DNA of 64,000 bases. It comes from an uncultured bacterium. Its GTDB lineage: Bacteria > Chloroflexota > UBA5177 > JANWHV01. The notes beneath the pieces are model-generated. The model was given only the letters and a program-made list of their open reading frames with translations, did no database searches and was not told the DNA's origin. Made by a program: the position numbers and the translations under genes. Within the stretch, counting starts at the first letter, position 1. Each line of letters begins with the position of its first letter. Shown one piece after another: positions 24,351 through 34,501 of this stretch. Where the stretch lies: contig CAVSOU010000011.1 in NCBI GenBank assembly GCA_963729625.1, positions 32,001-96,000 of the forward strand, in the 5' to 3' direction.

Positions 24351-25513
24351 CCTGGGCCTCACTGCCGCGGAGCACGCGGATTTCCAGCGACTGTTCTCGG
24401 CGCGCCTGGATCGGGTAAAGGCGACGACCGCTGATATGTTCGCCTTCAGGCAGCTCGATCGGCCGCCTTTCTGCGTGAACGGCGCCTGGTACTCGCTCTT
24501 CGGCCAGGATAGCCATACTGTCCCCGAAGCACTATTTCGAAGACCCTGCCGTCATGACGAGCTTCCAGGAGCGCTCGTACTACGAACAGGTCCGGGACGT
24601 GGCCGACGATTTTGTGCCGTATCTGGTGCCGTGGCTTGGCACTGCCGTGGTTGCATCGGCATTTGGCGGTCGTGTCGAGTTTCTGCCCAGGCAGGATCCT
24701 GCCACCGACCCGCGCTCCTACCCGGTCGCGACGCCGGAGGATGTCCGGCGGCTGCGAATTCCCGATCCCGAGATGGACGGCTTGATGCCGCGGGTGCTTC
24801 GCCTGCAACGCTACATGGTGGAGAACAGTTTCCTTCCGGTCGGCATAACCGATCTGCAAGGCCCGCTGACGACGGCGAATCAGCTCATGGGCTATGACCG
24901 TCTCATCTACCTGATGGCGGACGAGCCCCTCGCGGCGCATGAGCTCCTGGAGAAGATCACGGAGGCGCTCATACGCTGGGTAAAAGCGCAGAAGGCTGTC
25001 ATCGGCGAAACACTCACCGAGTGCATTGGCGATCAACTCGTCTATACGGGAAGTAACGCGGGCGTGTGGCTCGCCGACGACGACGCCGTGATCATGTCCC
25101 CGAAATACTATCGCGAGTTCGTCGTTCCTTATAACTCGCGATTGCTGCGGGAGTTCGGCGGCGGCTGCTTGCACTTCTGTGGCGCTGCGTGCCACCAGAC
25201 CGACAACTTCCTGGCCACCGATGGTCTTCGAGCGATCAACGTCTACACTTTGCACAATGCTCGCGCGTTTCGAGAGCTCAAGGAGAGGCTTGAGGGCCGG
25301 ATCGTGCTATTTGCCTGCGACTATGCGCCGCTTGAGCACCGGAGCTACTTCCGCGATCTGCTCGACGATCTCTCGCTCAGAGGCCTGGCAATTAACCTCC
25401 ACTATTCCCCCATTGTCGCCCTGTTGCCCGGTGGCAGATACGAAGCCGTGCAACGAGATATGCGTTCGGGTCGAGATGCGGTGTACACGTATTTGCATCG
25501 GCGCTTCGGCTGA
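24334..25513 (+). CDS. Third, divergent URO-D/MtaA-fold protein (frameshift near 24530)
   Basis: TDLQGPLTTANQLMG, WLADDDAVIMSPKYYREFVVPY, LHFCG. Confidence 0.7.
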
Positions 25514-25514
25514 G

Positions 25515-26093
25515 CTACCCGGAACCGTCTCCCCTTTCCGACGCGCCGGCGCAGCGAAGTGCCCGCCGAACGCGCGCGCCGACCTCGTACAGGGCGTCTC
25601 TTGCTCGGTCCACCGAATCGGCGTAGTGCAGGAAGCCATGGATCATCCCCTCGTAGCGGATGAGCTGCACAGGCACGCCCGCATCGAGCAGTCGGTGCGC
25701 GTAGAGCTCTCCCTCATCGCGCAATGGGTCGAATTCGGACAAATTGCCGCCCGCACTGTCGCCGCCCACTGCGATGCAGCCGGCGTCTCCGCCCAACTCC
25801 GCGGCGTGCTGAGCGATCCATGTGGCAGCGGCGAAGCAATCGTTCACAGCCGCTGGAAACGGATTCTCCGGCGCCAGTCGATAGTCAACCGACACCGTGA
25901 GGCACCTAGCGCCGTTAGTCAGCGCGCGGCAGATGGCATCGTGCGTGTCCAGGTTGTTGAGTACCCAGCCACTTCCGTGGAAATACAGGAGCACGGGGAA
26001 GGGCGCGGTCCCATCCGGCGCATAGAGTCGGACCGGGATCGCCCCGGCAGGGCCCGGAATAGTGCTATTCTCGACACGCGCGACGCGCTCCAT
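25515..26093 (-). pseudogene. HSL-family esterase/lipase with in-frame internal deletion
   Basis: HGSGW, DYRLAPENPFPA; GDSAGGNL fused directly to EFDPLRDEG...GMIHGF, so the usual intervening segment is missing. Confidence 0.75.
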
Positions 26094-26455
26094 TTCCTGC
26101 CTTCCTTTCCAACATGCTGCCCACGGGCAACTCGCGGCTAAGGCCCGCTGGCCTCCCTCGCGATGCTGCCATATATAGCGTAGCGAGGCGGTTGCCGTAT
26201 CGTGCCGGCGAAGATGCACCCCTGCGGCAGGTGCGCCTTCCCGGCCGCGGCGGCCGTATCCCACCGCACGTCCAGGCCCATAAGGCCACCCCGGCCGCGC
26301 ATCCGAAAAGGGTTAGCCGGCAGCGGCCGGATGGGCGCGGCAGCTTCACGCTACGCGATTGTCCCACCCGGGTGTCGATGCAGGATCTCTGGGTCGTACA
26401 TGGAGCGCACGTGTCGTCGAAACAGGGTGACACGAGCTAACCGGGGGCGTGGCCG

Positions 26456-29275
26456 CTAGCCCACGCTGTGCTGTTGTGCCAGGCTCGGCACAAGGCTTAG
26501 GAGCGTGCCCTGTTGGTCGACCAGCTGATCGGCAATGCAGCGCAGGAGCGCATCGACTACCTGAGGGTCCCATTGTAGCCCGCGGCCCTGGCGCAGGATA
26601 CCCGCCGCCTTGGCGACAGACATGCCGGGGCGATACGGTCGGTCGCTGGTCATCGCGTCGAAGCCGTCCGCTACCGCGAGCACCCGCGCCCCGAAGGGGA
26701 TGGCCAGCCCCTTGAGCCCATCCGGGTACCCCCTGCCATCCCATGCTTCGTGGTGGTGCCGCACAATCGTAATGCCGCGCGTGAAGTCCTGATACCCTGC
26801 CAACACCTCGGTTCCCCTCACCGGATGCGTCTTCATGAGCGCAAACTCGGCGGCGGTCAGCGCTCCGGGCTTGTTCAGAATCGCGTCAGGAATGGCGATC
26901 TTGCCGATGTCATGCACGCGCGCGGCCGAGAGAATCAACTCACAGTCGGGACCACTGAGCTTCATCTCCCGCAGGATTTGGCCACAGTACTCTTCAACGC
27001 GCCGCGAGTGGCCGCCGGTGCAGGGATCGCGCAGATCTACCGTCTCGGCCATACTCTCTAGCAGCCGGTGGGTGGAGTCCTGCACGTCGTGCAAGTGCTT
27101 CGCTGCCTTGTAGACCAATGCCCCGGGTACCACAAGAAGCACCAATGCCCATTCCGCGCGCTGGGAGACCAGTACCCCAAGGAAACCGACCAGGTACTGT
27201 ATGCCGTCGGGCACGGCGGTGTCGCCGGCAAGTGCACGCAGCACGCGCAGCGGCCGCTCCCCCGTCATGGGAGCCACAATCAGCGGTAGGGTGACGAAAT
27301 CGCCGGCCCACAGCACCAGGGCCGATGCTGCAAGCATGAGTAGCGCGGCGTCTCCCGGAGCGGGTACGTGGGCCACCAGATTGCCCAAGAGCACGACGAG
27401 CACCCACCGGGCGACAGCCGTGGCAATATCACTCGGATAGAGCTTGCGCTGCTCGCGCACCGATACTTCCCCGAGCAAGGTGCCGAACCCGGCTGCAACC
27501 AGAGCAAGCGGCAGGGGCAGTAACGCGGCGATTAGGAAGTACGCCATCGTTGAGAGTTGCACCTTGACGTGGAGACGAATGTGGATAGGGTACTGGTAGG
27601 CCACGACGACCGCGGCGGCGAGTGCCATCGCTTCCAACGTCACGCCCAGCGGTGCCGATCCAAGCTGGACCGCCGGCGACTGTAGCGCCGCGACCGTTGC
27701 CGCCACGGCCAGGAGCATAGTGGCGAGCGCCATCCCAGGCTGGGGCAACAGAGGCGACAACCGCTCCCAAATGGGCACTGCCCTCGCGCGGCCTGCTGGT
27801 CGTTTGTGGCCAGTGTCGCCGGCCAGACTCGCGGGCGCCTGATCACCGCCTTCTGCCTGTAGTTGCCGTGCGGCTGCCGACGTCGGAGTCGCTATCGCTG
27901 CGAATGCGGCAGCGCCCGCGGGTATTGCCAGCGGGGCGCGATCATGCACCTCGCCGTGCGCCTCAGCTGGGACCGGCATCGGCATCGTCGCGGGCCCGGC
28001 GTGCTGTGCCGGCTCCTCCTGCCTGCCCTCGTCCGTTGTCGCCGCGACCGCCTTTCCCGCCGGCTGCGGGATCCGGCGGTCCCACGAGAGATCAGATGCG
28101 CGCACCACGGTATTGCGTCCGCGGGTCTTGGCCTCGTAGACCGCCATATCGGCGGCAAAGATCAGCTCCTCCGAGGTGCTCCCGTCCTGCGGATAGCAGG
28201 CCACACCCAGGCTCATGGTCACCCTGATCGGTTCGGCAGACGTCGCGACCGGAAAGCGCGCGTCGGCGACGGCCCGCCTCAGGCGCTCGGCCAGAGTCTC
28301 GGCCACATAGGGATCGGCCTCAGGCGTGACCAAGAGGAACTCCTCACCGCCGAAGCGGCCGCCGATGTCGTACTCACGCATAGTCTGGCGGATGACCTGG
28401 CCGATGCCGGCCAGGACCGCATCGCCGGCAAGGTGCCCATAGCAGTTGTTGACATTGCGCAGCAGGTCGAGGTCGGCCATGATCACGGCGAGAGGCCGCT
28501 CAAAGCGGCTGGCGCGGTTGAGCTCCGCGCTGAACAGGGTTTTGAAGTGCCCAGCGTTGGCCAGTCCGGTCTTGCTGTCGATGGCGGCCAGGTGCTGGAG
28601 CTGCGGGATCATCAATGCCCGGTACATCAGCACGAGCGGGGTGAGGGCAGGCACGATGAAGATTGGATGGAGCTGCCAGAGCGTGGCAACCACCAAGCCC
28701 AGGCAGGCCAGGACCAGGTCGGTCAACGTACTCGAAAAGTCGAGCATCTCGGAGTCGTGCCAGCTCACGCCGCGGGCCAGGACCAGGGCAAGACCCAGAA
28801 GAACCCGGTTGAGGAGCACGTAGCTGAGCGCCGCTACCAGCCCCCTGATTGCCGGTGCGGCCGCGGAATCCGAACCACCTAAGGCGGTTAGCGCCACATA
28901 CAGCCAGTAGGCGCTCAAGCCGGTGAAACCGGTCATGGCGATGTTGAAGGGCTGGAGGTACCAGGCGCGCAGGTGCGGGCTGCGCTGCCAGCGCTCCTTG
29001 CCCCACTCGATCAGATGGGGAATTGCCACCAACAGCACAATCAGGAAAGGAGGCAGGAGCAGCACGCCGGCGAAGAAGAAGATTGGGCTGGTGTAGAACA
29101 GGACGTGGTTGGGCGCTTCCGCCTTGAATAGCTGCGCGAGCGTCGCCAGCACGGTCAGCGCCGCGAACGTACCCCAGGCCGCTGGAGTCGGGGCGAAGCG
29201 CAGCACGGCAAGGGTACTGAGCAGCAGGCCGGAGCCGAGTACGCCGCCCACGTAGGCGCGGGCGCCAATCGACAT
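26456..29275 (-). CDS. Membrane c-di-GMP enzyme: TM sensor-GGDEF-linker-TM sensor-HD-GYP
   Basis: Two multi-TM blocks; DSKTGLAN, RxxD (REYD) I-site, GGEEF; HSRRV, HDIGK, HHEAWDGRGYP. Confidence 0.93.
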   Translation of the reverse strand: MSIGARAYVGGVLGSGLLLSTLAVLRFAPTPAAWGTFAALTVLATLAQLFKAEAPNHVLFYTSPIFFFAGVLLLPPFLIVLLVAIPHLIEWGKERWQRSPHLRAWYLQPFNIAMTGFTGLSAYWLYVALTALGGSDSAAAPAIRGLVAALSYVLLNRVLLGLALVLARGVSWHDSEMLDFSSTLTDLVLACLGLVVATLWQLHPIFIVPALTPLVLMYRALMIPQLQHLAAIDSKTGLANAGHFKTLFSAELNRASRFERPLAVIMADLDLLRNVNNCYGHLAGDAVLAGIGQVIRQTMREYDIGGRFGGEEFLLVTPEADPYVAETLAERLRRAVADARFPVATSAEPIRVTMSLGVACYPQDGSTSEELIFAADMAVYEAKTRGRNTVVRASDLSWDRRIPQPAGKAVAATTDEGRQEEPAQHAGPATMPMPVPAEAHGEVHDRAPLAIPAGAAAFAAIATPTSAAARQLQAEGGDQAPASLAGDTGHKRPAGRARAVPIWERLSPLLPQPGMALATMLLAVAATVAALQSPAVQLGSAPLGVTLEAMALAAAVVVAYQYPIHIRLHVKVQLSTMAYFLIAALLPLPLALVAAGFGTLLGEVSVREQRKLYPSDIATAVARWVLVVLLGNLVAHVPAPGDAALLMLAASALVLWAGDFVTLPLIVAPMTGERPLRVLRALAGDTAVPDGIQYLVGFLGVLVSQRAEWALVLLVVPGALVYKAAKHLHDVQDSTHRLLESMAETVDLRDPCTGGHSRRVEEYCGQILREMKLSGPDCELILSAARVHDIGKIAIPDAILNKPGALTAAEFALMKTHPVRGTEVLAGYQDFTRGITIVRHHHEAWDGRGYPDGLKGLAIPFGARVLAVADGFDAMTSDRPYRPGMSVAKAAGILRQGRGLQWDPQVVDALLRCIADQLVDQQGTLLSLVPSLAQQHSVG

Positions 29276-29321
29276 CGCTGCCCGCCCTTCACTCGCCAAG
29301 CGGCGCCCTCTGCGCCGCGCT

Positions 29322-29350
29322 CAGCACTTGCTAGTAGACTAGCATTGCTG
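29322..29350. promoter_or_regulatory. Inverted repeat upstream of the GGDEF/HD-GYP gene
   Basis: CAGCA-ct-TGCTAGT-ag-ACTAGCA-t-TGCTG. Confidence 0.5.
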
Positions 29351-29480
29351 CACGCGGGAGTCGCTCCCCCAGTTGGGAGGTGTCCCGCGGCCAAATCTGC
29401 CGTTAGCCACTCGCTGACTGGTCGGACCGTCGCCGATCACTCAGAGCTGGATGCCCTGCGACGCGAGGAAGATCGAGGGC

Positions 29481-29505
29481 GGGCACGACCCTGACACCCG
29501 TGCCC
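29481..29505 (-). terminator. Stem-loop just after the S8 stop codon (no U tract)
   Basis: GGGCACG-11 nt-CGTGCCC. Confidence 0.35.
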
Positions 29506-29509
29506 ACGG

Positions 29510-31044
29510 TCAGCTGCCCCAGTAGTCGCTGCCCCAGTTCACCGAGCCCCAATTGACGCTGCCCCAGTTCACCGAGCCCCAGTTGACACTGCCCCAGTTC
29601 ACCGAACCCCAGTTCACGCTGCCCCAGGTGACAGGCTGGCTGCCGGTCCACAGCAGCTGGCTGGCAGCTATCCCGGTGTTTGATGTGGCAGTCGCTGTGC
29701 CGTGCACCGCGGCGTAAGCATCCACCTCGCCCGCACCCGTGCCCGCGCCCACATAGTGAGCCGTAGCCTTCAGGCGATATTTGACTTGGTCGGGATTGAG
29801 TGCCGGGTTGGACTGCAGCAAGAGCGCCACCACGCCGGACACCACGGGAGCCGCCATGGACGTGCCCGACATCCGCAGGTAGATGCTGCCGCTAGGCCCA
29901 TTGACCACGTTGGCCGGGTGCGCAACACAGATGACGCAGTTCACATTCCCGGACAAGCTCACCAGGTTGCTTCCAGGCGCCACCACATCCGGCTTGCTGA
30001 ATCCGTCTGTGGTGGTCCCGTACATGGAGTACGTGGCCAGCGTATGGTTGGCCAGATTGGTCGAACCGTGATCGTCCACCGCGCCCACGGTGATCACGAA
30101 GGGATCGTTAGCAGGCGCGTAGACGCCCCCGCTGTTCCCCGCGGAGACCACGACGACGATGCCGTTGAACCAGAGTATCTCGACGGCAGCGTCGATCGGG
30201 TCCACGTTGTAGGAATCCGGAGCTGTGCTGTTGAGCGAGAGGTTCACGACGCGGATATTGTAGGTCTGCTTGTGGGCGAGCACCCACTGCAAGCCCTGGA
30301 CGACGTTCGACGCGGTGCTCGCGCCCTGGTCGTCGCTGACCTTCACATTGATGATGTTGGCGCTCGGCGCTATCCCGACATAGGCGCCGTTTGATCGACT
30401 CGCCGTTGCCGGCAATGATGCCGGCGACGTGGTCGCCGTGGCCATACATGTCCGTGACCGACGTGTTGGGGCCGCTGTTGAACGCGACGTTGGCCACCAA
30501 CCGGCTGACACCCAACGGCGTGTACAGGTCTTGCGTCGGATTGACGCCGCTGTCGACGACCGCGACGCCGACGCCCTGCCCCTGCAGATACGCAGGCCCT
30601 TCATTCCAGACCCGTGAGGCGCCCACATCCTGAGGATTCGAGACTCAGCAGATTCGCGGTGTTGATGCACTGCGTACAGGAGCTGGCATGCACGACCGGT
30701 GCGTCGGTCGAGACCCACCGTACCGATGCTGCGCCCGCCAGCTTGGGCAGCATTCGTGCCCGTATGGTCGCGCTGAAGCCGTTGATGATCGGCAGCAGTA
30801 CTCCGACCTTGCCGCCTAGCGCGTGCACCAGCTCTTGTGCGCTGGTCGTTGAGCCCGTCGCCTGCACGATGACTGTCACCGTGGCCCCAGGCCGGGCCGC
30901 AGCTAGTTGCAGCAGGACAGGCTGCGCCTTGAGCGACTGAGCACGCGCTACGGTCGCGCTCGCCGGTGGTACCGCGAGGATCGCGACGAGCGCCAGGGCA
31001 GGCAGCCAGCGCCACTTGTTGGACCAGTGACGCGTCGTCTCCAT
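29510..31044 (-). CDS. Secreted S8 subtilisin-like serine protease (AprX-like) with Trp-rich repeat tail (frameshifts near 30630 and 30395)
   Basis: GGAGG RBS, signal peptide, propeptide; VAVVDSG (Asp), YGHGDHVAGII (His), SAGN, SGTSMAAP (Ser). Confidence 0.92.
29513..29626 (-). repeat. Coding 15-bp tandem repeat: (WGSVN)6-WGSDY-WGS
   Basis: Six 15-nt units with synonymous codon variation at the protease C-terminus. Confidence 0.95.
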
Positions 31045-31187
31045 GATAGTAATCCCTCCAAATTTCACGATAACCTTACCGGCTCTGCCGGAATCAGTGC
31101 ACCAGGACCGGCGACTCTGTCGACGCGCCTCCAAATGGGTGCATCCGCAGCTTGCATGACCGGTCTCCGTCCTCCGCCACGCCACGC

Positions 31188-31700
31188 CTACGATCCCCAG
31201 CTCACGTTTGGCTTGACGGTCGAGGCGCTGCCGATAACGGTGAGAATGGGCTGGTTGCTCATTCCTGCCACCTGGACTTGCGTGCTGCCGAGCCAGGCAT
31301 TGCCGGATTCGTGGACGGTCACCGGCACACTGCCACCCGTCGTGGTGACCGTGGTGATGGTTGACACAGTCTGGTCCGTGCGGTCGGCGGTGTAGGAGTA
31401 CGTTTCTTTCCCCTGCAGCGCGCCGCCGGTAGCGACATATGTCGTCACCACGGTGCCCACGGGGCCGTGGACAGCATAAGAGATACTCTGAACTTGCGTG
31501 CTGCTTGCGCTCACGTCGACGCCCACATTGATCTGCGAGGTCGCGCCCGCTCCTGAGGCGTCCGCGATCCAGATGATCGGTCCGGCGCGACTTCCTACGG
31601 CGGCGCGCACTTCCGGCGCGTGTGCCCAGCCGCCGGCCAGAACTCCGGCTAGCACCGTCACGCCCATCAGGGCACGAACCCCACGTACAACCTTCGTCAT
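31188..31700 (-). CDS. Secreted Thr/Val/Ser-rich hypothetical protein (170 aa) ending in NVSWGS
   Basis: AGGGAG RBS, MTKVVRGVRALMGVTVLAGVLAGGWAHA signal-like peptide, beta-strand-like composition. Confidence 0.75.
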   Translation of the reverse strand: MTKVVRGVRALMGVTVLAGVLAGGWAHAPEVRAAVGSRAGPIIWIADASGAGATSQINVGVDVSASSTQVQSISYAVHGPVGTVVTTYVATGGALQGKETYSYTADRTDQTVSTITTVTTTGGSVPVTVHESGNAWLGSTQVQVAGMSNQPILTVIGSASTVKPNVSWGS

Positions 31701-32425
31701 AGTTTTCTCCCTTTGTATGGCGATGCCAACCCGTCGAACGCTGCCGCACACGCGTGCCCATCGGCGGCCGGTCACACTCGCTATCGTATGAGAAAGACGC
31801 GGCCTGCGCATCACCTGTGTAGGCATCACTCCATCAGGTACTGGTTCTGGCTTTATGGCACTGTTTGCTTCCATTTCGCCCCAAGAGGTCGTTGCCGAGC
31901 ATGCATTGGCCCCAGCCCATCCGAGCCGGGACGACACTTGTGCCTTACCGGAGGCGATCGCCTGATTGAGGCCTGGTCATAACGTTGAGGACATGGCTGT
32001 GTCGTGGGTCAGGCAGCAAGGACGGAAGATATCAAGCCCACGCTGAGGTCGCGCTCGACGCGATGGTGCTGGCAGACAGTGAGCTGGTAGAGCAGCACAG
32101 CGGTCAAGGCGAGGCGGTTGCCATATCGCGCCGGCGATGATGCACTTCTGCGGCAGGAGCGCCTTCACGGCCGCGACAGCCGTATCCCAACTCGCGTCCA
32201 GGCCCTCTTGGCCGCCCCAGCCGTACATCCGAAACCTGACCGCAACTGATCGCGACCCCGGCGTTGCCGTACGAAAGCGATAGGCGAGGCCGATTGCAGC
32301 AGCCCCAGCAGCACGGATTTCTGGCATGATGAATCCGGCTACCGTCTGCCTGGCCGACAGAGAGTCCGAGCCGAATGATTCGCAAGTCTCTGCGTGATCC
32401 AGTGCGAAAAAGGATGTGAGTTAGG

Positions 32426-34501
32426 GTGTTGACGAGGTTGCTGATGCTCCCGGCCGGTCGCCGGGCGAAATGGATTGTGCTGGCGCTCTGGCTTCTCCCG
32501 CTCATCGCCTTGGGAAGCTACGCCGGGAAGTTCAACAACGCGCAGAAGAACGACCCAAGCAACTTCACGCCCAAAGGCGCTGAATCGACGCAGGTCGATG
32601 ACCTGCAGCGGACTGAATTCCCGGGCGGGAAACAGGCTTCGGCGATCGTAGTCTTCCATCGCGCTTCGGGACTGACGACTCAAGACATGGCCCGGTTTCG
32701 TGCCGATCTCGCCTACTTCAGCGGCCCGAAGCGTCCGGCAGTCGCCTTGCCCCCTGTTCCTGGTAGTGTGTCCGCGGACGGCAAGGTCGTCACGTTCACC
32801 ATGTCGATCGCCAGCAATGACGCTCTGGAAATCCAGAGGACCGTAGACGATATCCGGCTCTACCTTGGAAAAGGCACGAATGGTCTTGATATCCGCCTGA
32901 CCGGTCCCGCCGGCATCCTGGTAGATGCGGTGAAAGTCTTCGGCTCGATAAGCGGCGTTGTGTTGGCTGCCACGCTCGTGCTGGTGTTGGTGTTGCTCCT
33001 TCTCATCTACCGTTCCCCGATTATCGCGTTCATCCCGCTCTTCACCGTCGGCGCTGCCTACAGTATCGCGGCGGCGATTCTCTACTTTATGGCGACTGAT
33101 GCGGGCCTCACCGTCAACGGCCAGTCAGGCGGTATTCTCCCTGTTCTGATGTTTGGCGCCGGCACCGACTACGCGCTCCTGCTTATCGCGCGCTACCGTG
33201 AAGAGCTCTGTAAGCATCAGGATCGCCATGAAGCCATGGCGGTTGCCCTTCGGGGGGTCAGCCCGGCAATTCTCTCGAGCGGGACCACGGTTGTCGCCGC
33301 TATGCTCGTGCTCCTGCTGGCCACGCTCCGGTCCACCCAGAATCTGGGGCCGGTGCTGGCTATCGGCGTTGGCGCGGCACTGCTTGCAGGGCTCACACTG
33401 CTGCCTGCGGTCCTGCAAGTTGTTGGACGCAGGGCCTTCTGGCCTTTCGTGCCACGGCAGGCTGACGTGCCGGCACATGAACGGGGCATCTGGAACGCGG
33501 TGGGACGGGTTGTGGCGAGGCGACCTGGATTGGTCTCCACCGTCGCGATCGTCATGTTGCTGGGTCTGGCCTTCGGCGCAACCTCAGTGCGTGAGAATCT
33601 GAATCTGATCAATGGCTTCGTCGGATCGACGCAAAGCGCGGAAGGCTTTCAGTATTTGCAGGCGTCGGAGCCGGCCGGGGTGCTGTCCCCGACGAACATC
33701 GTGGTGCGTCCCGCGTCCGCCCTGCCGGCGGTGCTGCGTGCGGCGCATGCCGTGCCCGGCGTCGTGCCCGCTGCGTTCCCCTCCCTCAATGGTAGAGATG
33801 GCTATGTGCAAGCATCGGTGATCTTCAAGGACGATCCGTACGGTGCGGCGGCACTCGATCGTCTCGTCGCGCTCCGGCACGCTGTTCATGCCGCCGCCCC
33901 GGCGGGCGCGACTGTCCTGGTGGGCGGTGAAACCGCAATCACGCGGGACACGCAAGACGCGGCGAACAATGATATACACGTCATCGCGCCGGTCATCCTG
34001 ATCGTGATTCTGACGATCCTGTGCCTGCTGCTGCGTGCCGTGATTGCTCCCTTGTACCTTATTGCTACGGTAGTGCTGTCGTTCTTCGCCAGCTTTGGCA
34101 TAAGCGTGTACTGCTTCAACCACTTCTTCCACTTTGAGGGTATCGACGCGGGATTCCCCACCCTGCTGTTCTTGTTTCTCGTCGCGCTCGGCGTCGACTA
34201 CAACATCTTCCTGGTCACCAGGATTCGAGAGGAGTCGGCGCGCTTCGGCACCCGTGAGGGCGCCGTGCGCGGACTTGCGGCGACAGGCGGCATCATCACG
34301 TCTGCCGGACTGATACTGGCGGGCACGTTTGCCGTCTTGATATCGCTGCCCCTCAAGCAGCTCGTGGAGTTTGGTTTTGCAGTGGCGCTCGGAGTGCTGC
34401 TCGACACAGTCCTGGTGCGCGCCATTCTCGTTCCGGCGCTCGTGCTGAAAGTTGGTAGCGTGAGCTGGTGGCCCAGCGCGCTGCATCGAGCGACGTCTTA
34501 A
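32426..34501 (+). CDS. MMPL family (RND) transporter
   Basis: LTGPAG, FGAGTDY, RYREEL, VGGETA, LGVDYNIFL, RIREE. Confidence 0.95.
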   Translation: MLTRLLMLPAGRRAKWIVLALWLLPLIALGSYAGKFNNAQKNDPSNFTPKGAESTQVDDLQRTEFPGGKQASAIVVFHRASGLTTQDMARFRADLAYFSGPKRPAVALPPVPGSVSADGKVVTFTMSIASNDALEIQRTVDDIRLYLGKGTNGLDIRLTGPAGILVDAVKVFGSISGVVLAATLVLVLVLLLLIYRSPIIAFIPLFTVGAAYSIAAAILYFMATDAGLTVNGQSGGILPVLMFGAGTDYALLLIARYREELCKHQDRHEAMAVALRGVSPAILSSGTTVVAAMLVLLLATLRSTQNLGPVLAIGVGAALLAGLTLLPAVLQVVGRRAFWPFVPRQADVPAHERGIWNAVGRVVARRPGLVSTVAIVMLLGLAFGATSVRENLNLINGFVGSTQSAEGFQYLQASEPAGVLSPTNIVVRPASALPAVLRAAHAVPGVVPAAFPSLNGRDGYVQASVIFKDDPYGAAALDRLVALRHAVHAAAPAGATVLVGGETAITRDTQDAANNDIHVIAPVILIVILTILCLLLRAVIAPLYLIATVVLSFFASFGISVYCFNHFFHFEGIDAGFPTLLFLFLVALGVDYNIFLVTRIREESARFGTREGAVRGLAATGGIITSAGLILAGTFAVLISLPLKQLVEFGFAVALGVLLDTVLVRAILVPALVLKVGSVSWWPSALHRATS

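Follow-up and report, generated by a model that had tools for sequence, protein, structure and literature searches.

A conserved WGS ending on an exported beta-sandwich protein of Chloroflexota, shared with a neighbouring subtilase, and its possible role as a docking tag for a membrane c-di-GMP enzyme

Results

In this study, we analysed a 64,000-nucleotide (nt) stretch of DNA, here called the window, from an uncultured bacterium of the phylum Chloroflexota (assembly GCA_963729625.1, contig CAVSOU010000011.1), and in it a small exported protein, P0001, which ends in the same three residues, WGS, as the protease encoded next to it. The P0001 gene occupies 31188..31700 on the minus strand. It is followed on the same strand, 144 nt downstream, by the start of an S8 protease (subtilase) gene (29510..31044) and then by the gene for a 947-residue membrane enzyme of cyclic di-GMP (c-di-GMP) turnover (26456..29299), hereafter the receptor. 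A terminator-like site stands just upstream of P0001 on the minus strand and none was found between the three genes on that strand, an arrangement that appears operon-like. No Rfam family matched at 25000-34000. Coordinates are those of the window unless prefixed by a contig (C7, C10, C11); the window's genome (G000) is a 5.41-Mb assembly of 21 contigs, 87% complete with 5% contamination.

P0001 is a 170-residue protein, and its ATG is preceded, about 7 nt upstream, by the ribosome-binding site GGGAG; its stop codon lies at 31188-31190. Residues 1-33 (31602..31700, minus strand) read as a signal peptide with a predicted signal peptidase I site between VRA and AV, and in an AlphaFold2 model (m98c09641db48, built from a 20-row alignment) residues 1-37 have a pLDDT below 50. 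Residues 42-156 (31233..31577, minus strand) form the folded core, a nine-strand beta-sandwich with pLDDT about 78-92. The C-terminal extension, residues 157-170 (31191..31232, minus strand), consists of a linker and a tag and reads ...KPNVSWGS at its end; the tag proper, NVSWGS, lies at 31191-31208 on the minus strand, and pLDDT is 42 for residues 161-170. A previous sequence-only reading had described P0001 as a beta-rich secreted protein with no similarity to the protease beyond the common WGS end. The AxA signal peptidase site and the modelled sandwich agree with this description, no similarity between P0001 and the neighbouring S8 protease was detected, and the translations verify both endings (...KPNVSWGS and DYWGS).

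The family of P0001 is not catalogued in the resources searched. P0001 matched nothing in Pfam or NCBIfam at E ≤ 0.1, inhibitor families included, and the proposal that it inhibits the protease found no support; nine of its relatives had no Pfam match at E ≤ 0.01, nor at a threshold of E ≤ 1. Foldseek of the model against the PDB returned nothing at E ≤ 0.001, and an ESM Atlas search gave no usable match. Dehydrogenase C-terminal domains were considered as fold relatives and rejected, the best VIA-align match (Z 5.3, root-mean-square deviation 3.3, 94 aligned residues) being within noise.

The WGS ending is rare in the genome and constrained in the family. Only 10 of the 51,095 open reading frames (ORFs) of at least 60 residues in a six-frame translation of the whole G000 genome end in WGS. 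Six of these ten are P0001, two paralogues of it, the S8 protease of the window and two copies of a small ORF, distributed over four paralogous cassettes, and the remaining four appear to be non-coding. Thirteen family members with a tail, down to 36-46% identity, were aligned, and their tail columns hold P (10/13), N (10/13), [AV] (13/13), N (9/13), W (13/13), G (13/13) and S (11/13, with L in 2/13), while the linker columns ahead of the tag vary; the motif stands at the extreme C-terminus, as WGS in 11 of the 13 and as WGL in two. The tail consensus, [AV]NWGS, is the protease's own repeat unit, which bears out the suggestion that NVSWGS resembles that unit meaningfully. Of nine metagenome homologues of P0001 (46-82% identity), eight end in NANWGS, NVNWGS, AVNWGS, LVNWGS, NANWGL or SAAWGL. 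All eight distant members in alignment A1 lack the C-terminal extension, which in the tagged lineage comprises 12-16 residues, disordered in the P0001 model. Because WGS-ending ORFs are rare in the genome and the W-G pair is invariant behind a variable linker, a chance match is excluded, and comparison of the sequences confirmed that the WGS ending is a conserved add-on. A known C-terminal sorting signal of the LPXTG, PEP-CTERM or GlyGly-CTERM type was rejected: the P0001 chain stops directly after WGS with no hydrophobic segment, there is no helix or basic end after the motif, and no NCBIfam model matched at E ≤ 0.1.

P0001 belongs to a large exported family of beta-sandwich proteins, some 150 residues long, with two forms. 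A profile search of 1.84 billion representatives retrieved 696 clusters (counted at 50% identity) at E ≤ 0.001 and 565 at E ≤ 1e-10. Among 159 sequences compared, 141 are of a form that we term C-type, in which the motif x-C-[RYQ]-x-[DG]-P places a Cys three to five residues past an AxA-like site. This Cys is the only one in 136 of the 141 and has A, G or S at position -1 in 90, and the chains stop no more than about 6-10 residues past the last strand. In another 15 (S-type), P0001 included, Ser replaces the Cys (AVGSRAGP in P0001, xCRSDP in relatives), and the pattern AxA followed by AV[AG]SR is conserved in 15/15; three sequences have neither form. The ending is distributed accordingly: 12 of the 15 S-type members end in WG[SL], and none of the 141 C-type members does. 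P0001 was also considered as a bacterial lipoprotein and rejected, since it has Ser, not Cys, at lipobox +1; its C-type relatives are lipobox-like only. A search at E ≤ 1e-8 detected the family in 14 of the 21 genomes searched from the window's class; the 280 genomes from elsewhere in the phylum gave no match (these genome tallies include one unpublished genome, G018). No longer, fused forms were found, the search evidence on this point being weak, and a search for related loci with alignment A2 yielded two short metagenome contigs only and nothing among genome contigs.

Two side observations concern the family itself. In one genome (G005, L032:4890-6044) a C-type member carries a C-terminal extension of about 200 residues with short Gly/Thr/Val-rich repeats and several Cys, and its gene is directly upstream of a TM2-HD-GYP gene (TM2 is defined below). 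In one metagenome, two S-type members (P0008 on L017 and P0010 on L018) have nearly identical signal peptides and strongly diverged mature domains; the S8 genes that follow them start near-identically, and only P0008 has a tail (AAWGL). The two may be alleles or paralogues under diversifying change.

The S8 gene of the window encodes a signal peptide, a propeptide, a catalytic domain and a tail of Trp-containing pentapeptides. Pfam Peptidase_S8 matches it on two frames, and tblastn against the intact C7 paralogue (three segments) shows that its reading frame changes twice, near 30640 and near 30401, which spreads the gene over three frames; neither site is a homopolymer run. The sequence-only reading had missed this split. 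Contigs from public sequencing runs (four runs with small shares, none of RNA) match the window perfectly at 29400-29540, 30880-31030, 31455-31751 and 31536-31686, and none spans 30401 or 30640; the gene could be a pseudogene or reflect an assembly error of the metagenome-assembled genome. The tail, VTWGS(VNWGS)x6-DYWGS, occupies 29513..29632 (minus strand) up to the C-terminus, and its DNA pattern matches C11:61504-61626. An AlphaFold2 model of the intact paralogue (C7 488277-489875, 8-row alignment; mean pLDDT 49.7, about 25 in the tail) was uninformative on the tail.

The receptor has the architecture TM1-GGDEF-TM2-HD-GYP (Pfam GGDEF 1.2e-40, HD_5 1.2e-37), where TM1 (28595-29299, minus strand) and TM2 (27065-27799, minus strand) are polytopic regions ahead of GGDEF and HD-GYP, respectively, and each was used in domain-wise tblastn. 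Neither matched Pfam or NCBIfam. Comparison of TM1 with TM2 by BLASTP gave nothing, and hhalign placed them in register over 177 columns (probability 68%, E 4.9e-5); they may be distant duplicates, or the score may come from membrane composition. In profile comparison, TM3 of a paralogous locus (locus B, below) scored a probability of 0.2% against TM2 and 68% against TM1. No conserved Cys able to pair with the family Cys was evident on reading 12 TM2 sequences. A complex prediction of TM1, TM2 and mature P0001, run without controls, scored 0.06 against a mark of 0.32 and speaks neither for nor against binding.

Comparison across the phylum suggests that the locus combines two modules that are elsewhere separate. 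The first pairs the exported family with TM2. In 20 loci of distant C-type members from the window's class, a TM2 gene abuts the family gene in 11, being co-directional and immediately downstream in nine and divergent in two; of these TM2 genes one is fused to GGDEF, one was matched in its TM2 part only, and the rest encode HD-GYP. Neither TM1 nor S8 was found near the family gene in any of the 20. The second module pairs S8 with TM1. TM1 occurs in 12 of 301 genomes of the phylum, and in 8 of 11 TM1 loci examined an S8 gene with a Trp-pentapeptide tail is directly upstream of the TM1-GGDEF gene; two of the others lack S8 and one starts inside TM1. No family member was found in these 11 loci. 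The units of the TM1-linked S8 tails include SWGSA, LNWDS, VSWDS and SSWST, and several tails end exactly at a unit boundary (...AVSWGS, ...AVSWES, ...AVSWSS, ...AVSWGN). In one genome (G006) both modules occur without being fused, and the family members there are C-type and bear no tag. Taken together, these comparisons show that the ancestral form of the family is C-type, with a lipobox-like Cys, no tail and usually a position directly upstream of a TM2 gene, and that the Trp-tailed S8 protease and TM1-GGDEF are a second, independent pair in the phylum.

The tagged members are found where the two modules meet. Besides the window, contig C7 of G000 has two paralogous loci. At locus B the family member ends in NANWGS, followed after about 1 kb by an intact S8 gene with the tail (ASWGS)x10-DYWG, and the receptor reads TM1-GGDEF-...-GGDEF-EAL; the intervening 1 kb, which contains an ORF, lies at C7:489854-490880 (L013). 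At locus C the member ends in NAGWGS, the next gene is a small ORF ending in SAGWGS, and the receptor is again TM1-GGDEF-TM2-HD-GYP. A fourth tagged member belongs to a second genome of the same genus (G001), in which about 110 nt separate the family gene from the start of the receptor gene. In that genome neither a close S8 homologue nor a W-x-S array was found (the same search gave 14 matches in G000 as positive control), and with the assembly 95% complete in 20 contigs the absence of the protease is not proven. TM1 is present in all four tagged loci with a visible receptor; in three, TM1-GGDEF is fused to TM2-HD-GYP, while locus B has TM1 and no TM2. The receptor-linked members that lack Cys and carry [AV]NWGS-type tags were seen only in the two fused-receptor genomes of this genus, G000 and G001. 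In three other genomes of the genus (G002-G004) TM1 had no match, and the family members there are tailless and C-type. Since G001 keeps the tag where no protease was found, and since all four visible receptors carry TM1, the tag tracks TM1 more closely than it tracks the protease.

The linkage to S8, which the sequence-only reading had taken as the test of its proposal, is partial. Homologues do retain the WGS end, but S8 is the next gene in only four of six S-type loci with known context (the window, where it is frameshifted, locus B, where it is intact, L017 and L018); locus C has a tail remnant only, and G001 has no S8. Most of the close homologues have exactly the unit of the protease (NVNWGS, AVNWGS, LVNWGS, NANWGS). 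The tail does not, however, copy the unit of its own neighbour in every letter (VSWGS beside VNWGS, ANWGS beside ASWGS). These data bear on the idea that the ending is a protease recognition element, with S8 binding or cleaving the WGS unit, P0001 acting as substrate or competitive decoy, and the protease's own tail being autoprocessed or autoinhibitory. The gene order in the four S8-linked loci, the disordered and accessible tail of the model, and the occurrence of one unit on both the enzyme and its neighbour, which is how a substrate mimic would be expected to look, are consistent with it. We nevertheless regard it as quite unlikely, given that G001 has the tag and such a protease was not found there (with the limit on completeness given above), that P0010 adjoins a protease without having a tag, that P0001 matches no inhibitor or other family in Pfam and NCBIfam, and that the older and wider partner of the family is TM2-HD-GYP, not S8.

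A protease-tail remnant (NWGSANWGSVNWGSDY-stop) without a protease domain lies directly upstream of the locus C paralogue (C7:500647-500886, L014) and points to the loss of a protease gene from what was once a tandem cassette. Cassettes therefore rearrange, and the ending could in principle be functionless, left behind when the gene recombined with the 3′ end of a protease gene beside it; the position of NWGSANWGSVNWGSDY immediately next to a tagged gene would speak for this. A by-product would hardly be preserved as this tail is: the 13 sequences, down to 36-46% identity, keep W-G unchanged while the linker ahead of it varies, and the tail recurs in three diverged paralogues within G000 and again in G001. 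We hold this explanation to be most improbable.

The small ORF at locus C is a putative 66-residue ORF present in two copies, 95-98% identical (C7:501472-501687 on L014, and C10:421073-421288, that is, L015:7088-7288). It has an N-terminal hydrophobic helix, then about 23 residues with C-A-T-C-H (a CXXCH pattern) and the end SAGWGS. One of the copies separates the locus C paralogue from its receptor. Among 21 genomes of the class, the ORF was found in G000 only, with these two copies, and in none of the other 20.

Discussion

The explanation that we favour, tentatively and at somewhat less than an even chance, is that the WGS tail serves as a tag that docks or retains P0001 at the receptor, on its TM1 side. 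P0001 would be an exported protein that partners the membrane c-di-GMP enzyme, whose gene is the second one downstream, and it would end in a short linear tag borrowed from the protease module. The ancestral Cys may have served as a membrane tether, probably a lipid anchor. In the lineage with the fused receptor, Ser has replaced this Cys and a disordered extension with one protease-type unit has been gained; the tag would take over tethering, with the soluble protein docking at the TM1 sensor or at the membrane surface beside it. The multivalent protease tail may dock at the same place; if P0001 and the protease share a dock at TM1, the two proteins would act on one receptor and might together modulate c-di-GMP synthesis versus breakdown. 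Among the functions that the sequence-only reading had offered, a shared sorting or assembly tag fits best because the tag is found only in Cys-less members, whereas a signal precursor and a protease substrate are its rivals. That reading had not considered the membrane c-di-GMP enzyme, which seems to be the conserved partner more than the protease is. Consistent with this, the tag is retained in the absence of a working protease in G001 (no S8 found), at locus C (remnant) and in the window (frameshifted S8).

Several observations weigh against this explanation. The support consists of gene order and sequence comparison among related genomes that are not independent, and the four tagged loci with a visible receptor come from two genomes (G000 and G001) of one genus. 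In 9 of the 20 distant loci no TM2 gene lies within 5 kb of the family gene. The exchange of Cys for tag is incomplete: the S-type members P0017 and P0103 have other endings, and P0010 has no tail even though it adjoins an S8 gene, its ORF being complete in L018 and stopping right after the last strand, about 38 nt before that gene. The second copy of the 66-residue ORF is upstream of a membrane GGDEF-EAL gene without a TM1 match. As to the lipid anchor, 51 of the 141 C-type members lack A, G or S at -1, and in many the Cys follows an AxA site by a few residues. Finally, the loops of TM1 are predicted, on reading the sequence, to be short, which leaves no obvious docking domain, and a single NWGS unit would be a very small binding element.

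The restriction of the tag to members that have lost the N-terminal Cys would also be expected if the Trp units were a general surface anchor, sticking to the membrane interface or a wall polymer without a specific link to TM1. Trp favours membrane interfaces, and a WGS-ending small ORF is found beside a receptor without TM1 as well. A general anchor should be more widely spread than an ending confined in G000 to cassette proteins (six of ten, the other four looking non-coding), a single unit lacks the size needed to keep a protein at a membrane, and the invariant W-G with a preferred N before and S after it suggests specific recognition. This idea is, in our judgement, decidedly unlikely.

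A different role for the unit is suggested by the tandem tails, which run exactly to the C-terminus in several lineages. The units are in register with the C-terminus, and a freed unit would therefore end like the native WGS-COOH of P0001 and of the small ORF. It is possible, though unlikely, that the system resembles Phr precursors, the protease cutting at unit boundaries to free [AV]NWGS peptides, five or six residues long, from P0001, the small peptide and the protease tail itself, with TM1 sensing them and setting GGDEF activity. Rap-Phr pheromones are likewise usually C-terminal in exported propeptides and freed by proteases (PMC11343458). The 66-residue ORF, in which a signal-like helix precedes some 23 residues with AGWGS at their end, is placed between the locus C paralogue and the receptor as such a precursor might be, and the Trp-repeat S8 gene directly upstream of TM1 in 8 of 11 TM1 loci would place the protease beside the sensor. 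On the other hand, the tag is kept where the protease is missing, a remnant or frameshifted; some 120 folded residues would be an unusual vehicle for just one unit; the confinement of the tag to Cys-less members points to tethering; the units vary widely between lineages (SWGSA, VSWDS, LNWDS, SSWST); and no receptor of the Opp/RRNPPA type is adjacent, the neighbours being S8 and the membrane GGDEF/HD-GYP enzyme.

A related possibility, which we consider rather unlikely, is that the free C-terminus [AV]NWGS-COOH is itself the ligand of the TM1 sensor, with the protease tail as a multivalent, cleavable store and P0001 and the 23-residue peptide presenting single copies. If so, three kinds of exported protein would compete for one site and jointly set the balance of GGDEF and HD-GYP activities, and the unit would be a portable "address label" for extracytoplasmic signalling, transferable between unrelated proteins.

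To our knowledge, the inputs to the sensor domains of most membrane c-di-GMP enzymes are unknown. An uncatalogued exported family of about 565 clusters that gene order ties to polytopic HD-GYP/GGDEF enzymes is of interest in this respect, and a docking tag at TM1 would offer a six-residue handle on how extracytoplasmic proteins address such sensors. The fused lineage may be regarded as a natural experiment in which a protease-linked sensor module and the family's own module became one receptor, while the partner lost its Cys and gained one Trp-repeat unit. The Cys-for-tag pattern is also a discriminating observation on whether repeat tails serve as anchors or as signals.

Full-text literature searches, judged by the entries listed, surfaced nothing on the motif, the family or the pairing, and the comparisons that follow are of working principle. 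By description, TM1 and TM2 resemble MASE-type sensors such as MASE9, a group of polytopic N-terminal sensors with short loops that are fused to HD-GYP, GGDEF or EAL; MASE9 is described as having eight transmembrane segments, a hairpin within the membrane, and aromatic and Asn/Ser residues at conserved positions (Galperin and Chou, bioRxiv 10.1101/2021.11.05.467447). In the sections consulted, that account names neither a protease nor an exported protein as partner.

The pheromones of Rap-Phr systems are usually located at the C-terminus of exported propeptides, from which proteases outside the cell (Vpr, AprE, Epr) release them, and tandem copies occur (PMC11343458). The unit at the extreme C-terminus, the subtilisin-type release in Phr and the repetition of units make this and other RRNPPA systems possible analogues. 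Phr precursors, however, are short chains without a fold, and it is TPR receptors in the cytoplasm that sense them once Opp has imported them, whereas P0001 is a folded protein of 170 residues, the neighbour here is a membrane GGDEF/HD-GYP enzyme, and the tag persists without the protease. As a Phr-type propeptide P0001 was rejected, given that residues 42-156 are folded and that no Rap/NprR/PlcR-type receptor gene is adjacent.

LapD provides a case in which a Trp-centred short motif lets a membrane c-di-GMP protein hold an extracytoplasmic protease: a GWxQ loop with one Trp holds LapG, and the W125E mutant no longer binds it (PMC3032553; the inside-out signalling of LapD and LapG is also covered by PMC3032545). 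The likeness to the docking proposed here is one of analogy. In that system the receptor carries the Trp and the protease is of the Cys type, while here the Trp units are on an S8 protease and on the partner protein; LapD is moreover a degenerate GGDEF-EAL receptor with a large periplasmic domain, and we claim no homology between it and the receptor of the window.

The gene yfiR of Pseudomonas aeruginosa is directly upstream of yfiN in one operon. In this YfiBNR system the small periplasmic protein YfiR controls the membrane diguanylate cyclase YfiN (PMC4887326, PMC4655355, PMC2837407). P0001 may be analogous, as a small exported protein acting on a membrane c-di-GMP enzyme from outside the cytoplasm; for P0001 the likeness is in gene order, a small exported protein being encoded next to the membrane enzyme in 11 of 20 distant loci and in G001. 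No sequence similarity to YfiR was found; YfiR is not among the listed structural matches, of which even the best (Z 5.3) is in the noise range. The two systems differ in that the receptor here is polytopic with short loops and the YfiN sensor is periplasmic and PAS-type, and also in that the present system has an S8 protease and a common C-terminal Trp tag, with no YfiB-like third partner identified. YfiR, LapD-LapG and Rap-Phr are the closest systems in working principle, and P0001 is a member of none of them; what appears to be new here is the exported family, its pairing with TM2-HD-GYP, and the exchange of Cys for tag in the lineage with the fused receptor.

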